This document shows positions 31,158 to 33,857 of a DNA stretch of 42,591 nt, in pieces; position 1 is the first letter of the stretch; the number at the start of each line of letters is the position of its first letter. The notes under the pieces are model-generated. The model was not told where the DNA came from. It was given only the letters and a program-made list of their open reading frames with translations, and made no database searches. The position numbers were made by a program, and so were the translations under genes. The stretch is from a virus (lineage: Duplodnaviria > Caudoviricetes): positions 1 to 42,591 of the IMG/VR virus record IMGVR_UViG_3300049164_000073; one strand, written 5' to 3'.

Positions 31158-31370
31158 CTACTGCTGGCGGGCGAGTGCCGCGTTCGCCCAGAACATCGCC
31201 TCTTCGAGGGCGGTCAGGGCGAGCGACTTTTCGCGGCCGTCGGGGCAGGTCTCGTTGATGTGGTCGGCGGCGCGGCGGCATGTCTGCCGTACGGACGTGT
31301 GGGCGTCGCGCTTCTCGTCGGTGGTGGCTGCGTGGAACGCGAACCGGTGCTCGATGTCCTCGGGCGACAT
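31158..31370 (-). CDS. Acb2/Tad1-like helical hairpin protein (candidate cyclic-nucleotide sponge)
   Basis: IEHRFAFH...CPDGREKSLALTALEEAMFWANAALAR motif, recognised from memory of the family. Confidence 0.7.
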   Translation of the reverse strand: MSPEDIEHRFAFHAATTDEKRDAHTSVRQTCRRAADHINETCPDGREKSLALTALEEAMFWANAALARQQ

Positions 31371-32547: not shown

Positions 32548-32994
32548 TCAGTCGGTGGCGGGCAGCCATTCGCGGACTGTGCCGTTGGTGTCGCGTCCTC
32601 GATGCTCGCGGGTGCTGTGGCCGTGGCTCATCTCGCAGCGCGCGGACCACTTGAAGTCAGAGTCGGGGTGGTAGGTCATGCATCGAGTGTCCGGATCGCC
32701 GTCGTCTCCTGCTGCCTGGGCGCGCTGCTGGCGGAGGATGCGGGCGACGTAGCCGGATGCGTGGCTGATCCGCAGCCGTTCGGAGATTTCGCGCGGGTCC
32801 ATGCCCTGATCGGCGGCGGCGCGGATCAGGTCGGGCACTTCGGCTTCGATGTCTTTCCACTGGGCGCGGATGTGGCCGGTGTGGTCGAGGCGGTCGGCGA
32901 GAGTCATGTCTCGGGCGCGTTCGGCGGCGCGCTCGCGCTCGTACTGCTCGATCAGGGCGAGGATCTGCTCTTGGAGGGTGGGGCGCTGCATCAC
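32548..32994 (-). CDS. Protein with central HTH (Aca-like candidate)
   Basis: IRAAADQGMDPREISERLRISHASGYVARIL; C-terminal Cys/His cluster. Confidence 0.7.
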   Translation of the reverse strand: MMQRPTLQEQILALIEQYERERAAERARDMTLADRLDHTGHIRAQWKDIEAEVPDLIRAAADQGMDPREISERLRISHASGYVARILRQQRAQAAGDDGDPDTRCMTYHPDSDFKWSARCEMSHGHSTREHRGRDTNGTVREWLPATD

Positions 32995-33048
32995 GTCGGC
33001 TCCGGTAGGGGTCGGGCCCGGCCGGGCGGGCCGGCCGGGCGGGGTGGG

Positions 33049-33525
33049 TCAGGTGAAGAGGGCGCCCTGTTCGCGGTCGGGCGTGAGCTGGAACAGGGTG
33101 TCGTCGGGCTGGGCGCCGATCCAGTCGGAGCGCCACGTCTGCGCGGCGCCGTCGGTGGCGGTGGTGTCCTCGCGGTGCTGCTCGGCAACGGCGGCAGCCT
33201 CGGCGCGGTCGCGCTGCTTGGCGGCGATGCAGCGGGTGCACAGCTTCCAGCCGGTGACGGTGGCGAAGATGCCGTTGCGGGCGCCGGCGGGGCGTCCGCA
33301 GTAGAGCTGGGTGGTGCCGGGGCGGCGGTAGTGGCCGGTGGTCTTGAGAGCGGAGCCGCGGACGGCGTAGGTGTCCTGGTCGGCGGTGTCGCGCAGGTTG
33401 AGGTGGTCGGCGAGCTGCTGCGCGCCGACGGTGGCCATGCCGGTGCGGACTGCACCGGTGAGGGTGTCGAGGACGTACGCGCCCATGACGCGCTGCGGAC
33501 GGGTGATGTAGCGGGTGGTGGCCAT
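33049..33525 (-). CDS. Hypothetical protein (158 aa), first gene of an operator-controlled operon
   Basis: MATTRYITRP... after GGGAG; H...LYCG...LCTRC possible zinc ligands. Confidence 0.75.
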   Translation of the reverse strand: MATTRYITRPQRVMGAYVLDTLTGAVRTGMATVGAQQLADHLNLRDTADQDTYAVRGSALKTTGHYRRPGTTQLYCGRPAGARNGIFATVTGWKLCTRCIAAKQRDRAEAAAVAEQHREDTTATDGAAQTWRSDWIGAQPDDTLFQLTPDREQGALFT

Positions 33526-33575: not shown

Positions 33576-33605
33576 ACTGTACTCGGTACTGTACTGAGTA
33601 CGCAA
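33576..33605 (-). promoter_or_regulatory. Promoter with palindromic operator
   Basis: TTGCGT-N18-TACAGT on the minus strand, overlapped by GTACTCGGTAC-T-GTACTGAGTAC (33579-33601, 10/11 inverted repeat). Confidence 0.7.
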
Positions 33606-33622
33606 GAGGTGTGAGGGAACGC

Positions 33623-33649
33623 AAAAACCCCCGCACGGTGGCGGGGGTT
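33623..33649 (-). terminator. Intrinsic terminator closing the repeat RNA
   Basis: AACCCCCGC-CACCGT-GCGGGGGTTTTT hairpin with T tract. Confidence 0.7.
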
Positions 33650-33804
33650 CATCCCCGCAGCAGCGGGGAGCAAGGTCGTACACCCCTGAGACTCGGGGCA
33701 TCCCCGCACAGGCGGGGAAACCTCCGCTCGCGCGGAGAAAGGGACTCATCAGCCGTCACCGGCCGCAAAAACCCTCGGAACACCCCCGCGGTGGCGGGGA
33801 GCAA
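33645..33804 (-). CRISPR. Cas-less degenerate mini-array of four type I-E-like repeats
   Basis: 29-nt units: TTGCTCCCCGCCACCGCGGGGGTGTTCCG (33804-33776), CCTTTCTCCGCGCGAGCGGAGGTTTCCCC (33742-33714), GGTTTCCCCGCCTGTGCGGGGATGCCCCG (33722-33694), TTGCTCCCCGCTGCTGCGGGGATGAACCC (33673-33645). They align to the I-E pattern GTGTTCCCCGC-N4-GCGGGGATAAACCG; spacers are 33 and 20 nt. Confidence 0.8.
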
Positions 33805-33827
33805 GCCCCGTTGCCGGGGCGATGCCC

Positions 33828-33857
33828 ACTGTAGCGGGCCGCACGGGGCCATGTCAG
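33828..33857 (-). promoter_or_regulatory. Promoter for the repeat RNA
   Basis: CTGACA-N18-TACAGT (housekeeping-sigma-like), followed by a GCCCCG-GCAA-CGGGGC hairpin (33820-33805) abutting repeat 1. Confidence 0.65.

Follow-up and report, generated by a model that had tools for sequence, protein, structure and literature searches.

A probable cas-less type I-E guide-mimic array in a temperate phage and its likely target, a small gene embedded in Streptomyces CRISPR-cas operons

Introduction

What is a set of type I-E CRISPR repeats doing in a phage with no recognisable cas gene? The question is raised by a virus record of 42,591 bases (about 70% G+C, rated 100% complete), the whole of which is the window analysed here. 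A preliminary description, made from the letters alone, offered two answers: a multi-repeat RNA anti-CRISPR acting as a decoy, or a cassette of guides that hijack the host's Cascade. What it overlooked is the likely target, which lies within the cas operon: a gene for a small membrane protein.

Phage-borne, multi-spacer I-E guide mimics have been described as Cracr arrays in a preprint (bioRxiv 10.1101/2024.10.29.618823, Liu et al.), so the novelty implied by the preliminary description was overstated. As presented there, 20 I-E arrays were identified and one was tested, against the casA promoter, while silencing of toxins was shown for type I-F with RNA toxins. In the model of those authors, the guides act in two ways: as competitors for Cas proteins, and as silencers of the gene that would punish this competition. 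By its sequence features the present cassette is best read as a Cracr array that would work like one. Specifically, we propose, with a probability of about 0.7, that it is a cas-less array of two I-E guide mimics, the 20-nt one of which likely directs host Cascade to repress a probable toxin gene. This reading draws on the anatomy of the cassette, the likeness of its short spacer to host spacers, an AAC-flanked target, co-variation of host spacer and target, and purifying selection on the targeted gene. As far as the preprint text goes, the principle is known, namely that crRNA mimics encoded by phages silence the promoters of cas or toxin genes; the setting of the target is the new part.

Results

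Genome setting and anatomy of the cassette

The record encodes a serine-type integrase, a repressor and a terminase, and the phage is temperate. Profiles for Cas6e, Cas7 and Cas1 found no match in it, which bears out the earlier statement that no cas gene is recognisable; like Cracr arrays, the cassette is carried by a mobile element outside any CRISPR-cas locus. Genes related to the one downstream of the cassette encode Streptomyces or Streptomyces-phage proteins wherever the source names an organism, and we therefore take the host to be a streptomycete. The cassette occupies the gap between a DUF6221 gene and a 158-aa gene without assigned function, and the stretch was assembled letter for letter in six of six soil runs (any of which may be the source of the record). 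Four viral loci with relatives of the downstream gene hold no I-E hairpin, which marks the cassette as a variable insert.

Two neighbouring regions were also recorded. A 70-aa Acb2/Tad1 hairpin-domain protein (PF24729, E = 3.8e-21) is encoded at 31158..31370 (minus strand), 2.3 kb downstream of the cassette; we take it to be a candidate signal sponge against CBASS or Thoeris, and its gene is by sequence a candidate second counter-defence gene of the phage. A promoter-like TTGCGT-N18-TACAGT at 33576..33605 (minus strand), overlapped by a 6-bp inverted repeat (seen by eye; not in the list of the promoter scan), precedes a stretch at 32548..33525 (minus strand) with the 158-aa gene (47 matches including itself) and a weak HTH gene. 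This layout presumably resembles an acr-aca operon; no sign of an Acr was seen.

The promoter, the 5' hairpin with its GCAA loop, R1, the 33-nt S1, R2/R3, the 20-nt S2 and R4 are all present on the minus strand as first described (Table 1). Two other statements of the preliminary description held in part. The hairpin-T5 terminator is seen in the fold at 33650-33623, where the stem is paired into the T run, but the pattern scan for terminators did not list it and gave instead a weak 5-pair site at the R1 end, followed by T5 inside S1. The 29-nt I-E geometry ascribed to every unit applies to R1 and R4; R2 is without the 8-nt handle and R3 without the 5-nt leader.

Table 1. Positions of the cassette features in the 42,591-base window, in order of predicted transcription
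Feature	Position	Strand	Basis or detail
Promoter CTGACA-N18-TACAGT, predicted housekeeping type	33828..33857	-	CTGACA 33857-33852, TACAGT 33833-33828
5' hairpin, 6-bp stem, GCAA loop	33805..33820	-	fold
R1, full 29-nt I-E unit	33776..33804	-	23/24 non-loop positions as in a Streptomyces repeat
Spacer S1, 33 nt	33743..33775	-	positions 11-26 fold as a 6-bp hairpin
Half-repeat R2: leader and CTCCGC/GCGGAG-type hairpin, no handle	33722..33742	-	hairpin scan, repeat comparison
4-nt linker and half-repeat R3: hairpin and 8-nt handle	33694..33721	-	hairpin scan, repeat comparison
Spacer S2, 20 nt, putative mimic of a host CreA-like guide	33674..33693	-	spacer/target comparison
R4, full unit, handle overlaps terminator	33645..33673	-	23/24 non-loop positions; lines up with the repeats of host mini-arrays
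Predicted intrinsic terminator, GC hairpin and T5	33623..33650	-	fold; absent from pattern-scan list

The four I-E-type hairpins fall within 150 bp and are the only ones in the genome. Their starts are 62, 20 and 49 nt apart and all repeats differ, which is not the arrangement of a canonical CRISPR array (identical repeats, 61-nt period, spacers of about 32 nt). The cassette reads as two modules back to back, R1-S1-R2 and R3-S2-R4, joined at half-repeats whose hairpins are separated by 4 nt. The handles of R1 and R3 are intact, and the units thus have the hairpin and 5' handle of Cracr repeats: R1 would supply the 8-nt 5' handle of guide 1, R2 would close that guide and R3 would open guide 2.

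Could these be generic GC hairpins, the outcome that the preliminary description had named as counting against it? A total of 42 hairpin readings were scored against the repeats of 66 Streptomyces arrays, 49 of them distinct. Matches at non-loop positions were 23/24 for R1 and R4, 19/24 for R3 and 18/24 for R2, whereas the best perfect 6-bp/4-nt hairpin outside the cassette reached 15/24; on this measure they are not. The 205-nt minus strand folds with z = -5.6, and none of 200 shuffles folds as well. Between 33000 and 34500 there is no sigma-70-type site other than this promoter, and shuffled sequence would give 0.1.

No Rfam family matched the cassette at gathering score, and no RNA holder was listed for it. 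The combination of 5' hairpin and R1 had no match in viral contigs, and no close relative of the whole cassette was found there. A blastn search against phages, the check that the preliminary description had proposed for repeat conservation with spacer turnover, matched only at the upstream gene. An 11-nt stretch is shared by S1 positions 2-12 (33764..33774) and the terminator tail (33620..33630), both on the minus strand, by duplication or chance.

The 20-nt spacer and its host target

A paired-hairpin scan of viral contigs (99 stretches) revealed S2-like spacers in other phages. The S2 handle-plus-seed pattern gave nine matches in 185,579 genomes, four in Streptomyces mini-arrays and five without a repeat hairpin; two of the matches adjoin phage-like lysis genes (by inspection), and two are one-spacer mini-arrays between cas3 and cse1. 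Locus L117, the host that matches best, was retrieved with this pattern. The likeness of S2 to the L117 host spacer (15 of 20 positions identical, the same at 1-5, 7-11 and 13-15) is by construction, because the pattern was built from S2 and its relatives; the match to the target lies outside that pattern.

That target is a site flanked by AAC (L107/L117), equal to the phage S2 at positions 1-5, 7-11 and 13-14, with mismatches after position 14. Positions 6, 12 and 18 are unpaired in the Cascade R-loop, and the 12 pairing positions scored here are positions 1-14 without 6 and 12. By this count S2 fits the site of L117 at 12/12 and those of L144 and L157 at 11/12. A single one of 85,154 phage positions, the start of S2, gives 12/12 with PAM in the L117 junction. 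AAC is reported as a tested PAM of the S. mobaraensis I-E system (PMC13572051), and position 6 is stated to be unpaired for I-F1 (bioRxiv 10.1101/2023.03.03.530964).

As in Cracr arrays, the match is partial, PAM-flanked and in the promoter region of a cas locus (AAC and 12/12). Cracr spacers agree with a host CreA or CreR at no fewer than 9 PAM-proximal positions, which S2 reaches if the unpaired position 6 is ignored; its strict contiguous identity is 5. No perfect 10/10 seed match of S2 was found in 148 sampled cse1 loci. The L117 host's own array repeat has the same type of hairpin and handle as R3 and R4. The S2 site, about 260-330 nt upstream of the cse1 match, overlies the ribosome-binding site of an ORF of about 72 aa, with two predicted helices, between cas3 and cse1. 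Streptomyces I-E loci thus hold both a counterpart of S2 and a PAM-flanked target for it, which supports the Cascade-hijacking branch of the preliminary description.

A host module of embedded ORF and mini-array

In all eight ORF-bearing loci examined (L116, L117, L144, L157, L158, L276, L277 and L288) the ORF stands between cas3 and cse1 on the strand opposite to the cas genes. The order is the same throughout: -10 box, AAC, site, ORF and one-spacer mini-array. In each copy the -10 box points into the ORF, and the site follows it by 16-23 nt and covers the ribosome-binding site. The host spacer agrees with its own AAC-flanked site upstream of the ORF at 11-12 of 12 positions in all eight, and spacer and site co-vary across loci, their first five bases reading AGTCT, AGTTT, AGCCT, AACCT, GGTCT or ACCCA. 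The host spacers are 20-21 nt long in six loci. Each locus shares with CreTA a crRNA-like mini-array in a cas locus with a PAM-flanked partial match at the promoter of a neighbouring gene.

Six of these copies were found without the seed pattern: three in a survey of cse1 loci, two by a protein profile and one, on plasmid L288, by blastn of the cassette. The survey took the upstream DNA of 150 of 217 cse1 matches, limited to 1.5 kb in 30 cases, and two very short pieces were then left aside. In this sample, drawn without regard to spacer, the module was rare, with 3 of 148 loci (L144, L157 and L158). The ORF profile gave two strong matches (L276 and L277) and seven weak ones at E of at least 3.9e-6 in 400 further genomes.

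A second copy of the final ~70 nt of cas3 stands ahead of cse1 in L107 and L111. The repeats bracket the ORF and guide, which fits insertion into a coupled cas3-cse1 junction and is insertion-scar-like. The cas3-cse1 gap is 665-791 nt in the five module-bearing loci measured versus about 19-61 nt in many others. Many module-less loci have an upstream gene that ends within ~60 nt of the cse1 match, which suggests that cse1 is co-transcribed with cas3.

The ORF is under purifying selection, with pN<pS in 28 of 28 pairs (median 0.21 versus 0.67; the pairs are not independent), and has two hydrophobic segments. Neither Pfam nor PADLOC matched it at threshold, and leads for the family from the ESM Atlas all stayed under 0.9. 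Its 17 homologues have no informative name; 6 clusters were obtained at E<=1e-10. It was absent from the one annotation table inspected. A tblastn search of plasmids returned nothing although plasmid L288 carries the ORF, so that blank marks a limit of sensitivity. By analogy the ORF is a probable toxin, on the grounds of its layout, the precedent of a translated toxin in I-E CreTA and the occurrence of CRISPR-supervised membrane effectors.

The S2 site may touch a divergent cse1 promoter, so S2 could instead be a CreR-type mimic that represses the cse1-cas operon from there, the small ORF being a bystander or co-target. A distance of 259-327 nt to the cse1 match would suit this, the I-E Cracr and CreR guides known from the sources consulted target casA promoters, and one archaeal CreA is described as repressing both creT and cas8 (bioRxiv 10.1101/2023.03.10.532045). 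We nevertheless consider it unlikely: all eight sites follow a -10 box directed at the ORF and cover the ribosome-binding site, the ~60-nt gaps of module-less loci suggest that cse1 is transcribed with cas3, and selection maintains the ORF.

A second type of host mini-array module was seen about 100-1150 nt upstream of cse1 in L224, L226 and L227. It has an AAC-flanked self-target at the start of an opposite-strand ORF of ~290 aa (match in L224 and L227, not in L226), and its spacer is copied by spacers in phages L113, L114 and L115. The ~290-aa ORF is a candidate CRISPR-supervised defence gene.

Related cassettes in other phages

The S2 seed family recurs in 11 other phage or prophage cassettes, nine among 59 parsed loci (54 plus 5 earlier) together with L114 and L115; several may not be independent, as the numbers of their source metagenomes are similar. 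The nine carry a 20-21-nt spacer with an AGGGG block at positions 7-11, as in S2 (by eye). Positions 1-5 of the family vary, and the L306 version equals the L144 and L157 sites exactly. The phage contigs L114 and L115 have the block R2-R3-S2-R4-terminator too, but preceded by different first spacers and beside other genes.

Among 98 distinct viral spacers, four had a PAM and a 10/10 seed match within 450 nt of cse1 in the 148 loci, against 0.25 expected from shuffles (0 of 5000 reached four) and 0.88 from random phage words (P = 0.012). The contrast was weaker in a 1,300-nt window, with five against 0.56 (shuffles) and 2.5 (random phage words). The set includes S1 and S2, neither of which is among the matches of this test; L297, L301 and L339, loci under 62% G+C and mis-parsed joints were dropped.

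These counts bear on whether the cassette is only a decoy, a multi-repeat Racr that soaks up Cas6e and Cas7 and whose spacers are leftovers of captured host mini-arrays. The four hairpins, the spacer-less R2/R3 joint and an S1 for which no target was found would agree with that, a solitary-repeat RNA could arise by termination at the weak terminator-like site that follows R1, and competition for Cas proteins is, as the preprint describes it, also part of Cracr action. A Racr in the strict sense is a solitary repeat without a targeting spacer, and here there are four hairpins and S2 has a target. The pure decoy branch of the preliminary description does not explain that target match. Across phages the S2 seed is conserved and follows the variants of the host target, as the L306 spacer does those of L144 and L157, and the four matches near cse1 exceed both expectations. 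A decoy alone is thus quite improbable.

Several further cassettes are of interest in themselves. A cassette spacer of L106, in a prophage-like region of genome G001, is near-identical over its first 19 nt to the mini-array spacer of that genome's own I-E locus (L266) and differs from it at position 12; by sequence, one cell may thus hold a resident mimic together with the system that it targets. A Streptomyces anulatus plasmid (L287; NZ_CP108572.1, ~98,200-98,560) carries a multi-spacer, short-spacer I-E cassette with different seeds and no cas gene among the features within 1.5 kb. The cassettes L110, L113, L114 and L115 share a TGTC-type motif upstream instead of the window's promoter; we assume that it resembles an actinobacterial DNA-damage promoter.

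The 33-nt spacer

Cracr arrays hold at least two different spacers, aimed at variants of one subtype. The cassette holds two; no target of S1 was found in the 152 cse1-upstream regions (0 matches), two overlapping samples of 401 genomes, metagenomes or viral contigs. Its handle-plus-seed pattern matched 0 viral contigs, 6 of 401 genomes against 3 control matches (none in a mini-array) and two metagenome sequences, one coding DNA and one an ordinary array spacer. Its PAM-plus-seed pattern matched 13 of 401 genomes against 19 control matches, and none adjoins a cas gene (by inspection). We tentatively regard S1 as a probable guide. A general tendency of long viral spacers to fold their distal half was unsupported (22 viral versus 902 host spacers, P = 0.57; the viral spacers have lower G+C).

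As an alternative, the cassette could be a mini-array through which the phage turns host Cascade-Cas3 against its competitors. The 33 nt of S1 are near the canonical length, and virus-borne mini-arrays are reported to be used in inter-virus conflict (PMC6858448). Such a role is very improbable: S1 had no full-length match in 50,697 phage records (best 51% cover, E = 7), its distal half folds on itself, and S2, at 20 nt, matches a host locus.

A variant of the cassette

A variant contig of low depth (4.7 and 2) was seen in two runs. Its listed changes affect the -10 box (TACACT for TACAGT), S1 positions 6 and 18, a single base of a handle, a pair that becomes a wobble, and otherwise only loops; differences near the contig ends (1/11 and 4/12) are not listed. 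The change in the 5' hairpin keeps pairing as a U-G wobble, and the listed changes spare all stems. Both S1 changes are at non-pairing positions (chance about 0.02 by our own arithmetic, for one variant). Position 18 is also in the loop of the S1 11-26 hairpin, so its change has two readings.

The least credible alternative is that the cassette derives from captured host DNA and is now a functionless relic in decay, which its absence as a variable insert from four related loci would allow. Against it stand an intact promoter, stems and terminator, a variant whose listed changes spare every stem, and an R2-R3-S2-R4-terminator block common to phages with other neighbouring genes.

Discussion

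We favour the two-guide mimic array, which could work as follows. A transcript of ~200 nt would be made from the cassette and cut by host Cas6e at the base of each hairpin, to yield a 62-nt guide 1 (33783-33722) and a 49-nt guide 2 (33701-33653). Each Cas7 subunit covers 6 nt of spacer, and in type I-F the number of backbone subunits is set by spacer length. Guide 2 would load a Cascade about two Cas7 subunits shorter, pair over 14 nt only and bind without calling Cas3. Sitting just after the -10 box and over the ribosome-binding site, the bound Cascade would block transcription of the ORF. The ORF would be a CreT-type safeguard toxin that the host's CreA-like guide normally keeps silent and that titration or inhibition of Cascade sets free. 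In this way the phage could soak up Cascade without tripping the safeguard, and guide 1, framed by another type of I-E repeat, would likely do the same at a second locus.

The closest parallel is the CracrIE array of the Salmonella Se29 prophage, which in the preprint's account is likewise phage-borne and cas-less, with degenerate I-E repeats and two different spacers, one of which resembles a host crRNA-like regulator and has a partial PAM-proximal match inside a CRISPR-cas locus. The targets differ: that of the tested I-E array is the Salmonella casA promoter, whereas here the predicted target is the start of an embedded protein gene in Streptomyces. The present cassette also differs from the Se29 array as described in joining two modules of different repeat types at half-repeats. 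Streptomyces has no mention in the main text of the Cracr preprint, whose supplementary tables include Actinomycetota and may list the S2 spacer family. The CracrIF1/2 arrays of Pseudomonas type I-F match our reading of S2 in that, as reported, a viral mimic of a CreA antitoxin keeps a safeguard toxin off with a spacer of 17-21 nt. They involve an RNA toxin and a linked AcrIF24, whereas the cassette is I-E, with a candidate membrane-protein toxin and no identified Acr. Unlike the hosts reported for CracrIF1/2, the hosts here mostly have spacers as short as the phage's (20-21 nt in 6/8).

The host module has its nearest relative in the I-E CreTA of Citrobacter rodentium (PMC12055562), in which, as reported, the gap between cas3 and casA holds a small toxin that is translated, together with a crRNA-like antitoxin whose target is partial and PAM-flanked. 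That ORF is 96 bp long with the antitoxin on the opposite strand, and the portion of the article drawn on mentions no phage mimic. The Streptomyces module differs from CreTA, compared by layout, in its ~72-aa two-helix protein and a mini-array downstream on the same strand. CRISIS systems such as the 2TM Longwang (bioRxiv 10.1101/2024.12.27.630466) are described as sharing a cas-embedded gene and crRNA-like repression, and membrane effectors occur among them; Longwang has an extra long helix and a four-helix part, and the preprint text consulted does not mention I-E or Streptomyces. Racr RNAs (PMC10651486), as outlined there, also mimic CRISPR repeats and would occupy Cas subunits, but they are solitary repeats, unlike the present four hairpins with a spacer for which a target was found. 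A literature search on Streptomyces CRISPR with crlRNA found nothing, and of the titles returned for CreTA with Streptomyces none concerned the module.

A broader claim stands at about even odds: that Streptomyces I-E loci hold an undescribed Cascade-guarded suicide module, a ~72-aa two-helix membrane toxin with an RNA antitoxin, inserted between cas3 and cse1, that a guild of actinophages carries counterfeit antitoxin guides against it, and that the two sides are in an arms race over the seed. On this view guide positions 7-11 would be nearly fixed because the target spans the ribosome-binding site, while positions 1-5 would turn over in step in hosts and phages.

What the analysis adds is a concrete target in a setting that is new: the I-E operons of Streptomyces, where a protein gene lies hidden. 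If the ORF is a toxin, antitoxin mimicry, described for the RNA toxins of type I-F, would extend to protein toxins in type I-E, and phage guides could be used as pointers to hidden defence genes. For editing with the native Streptomyces Cascade, titration may release a toxin in about 2% of loci (3/148 sampled).
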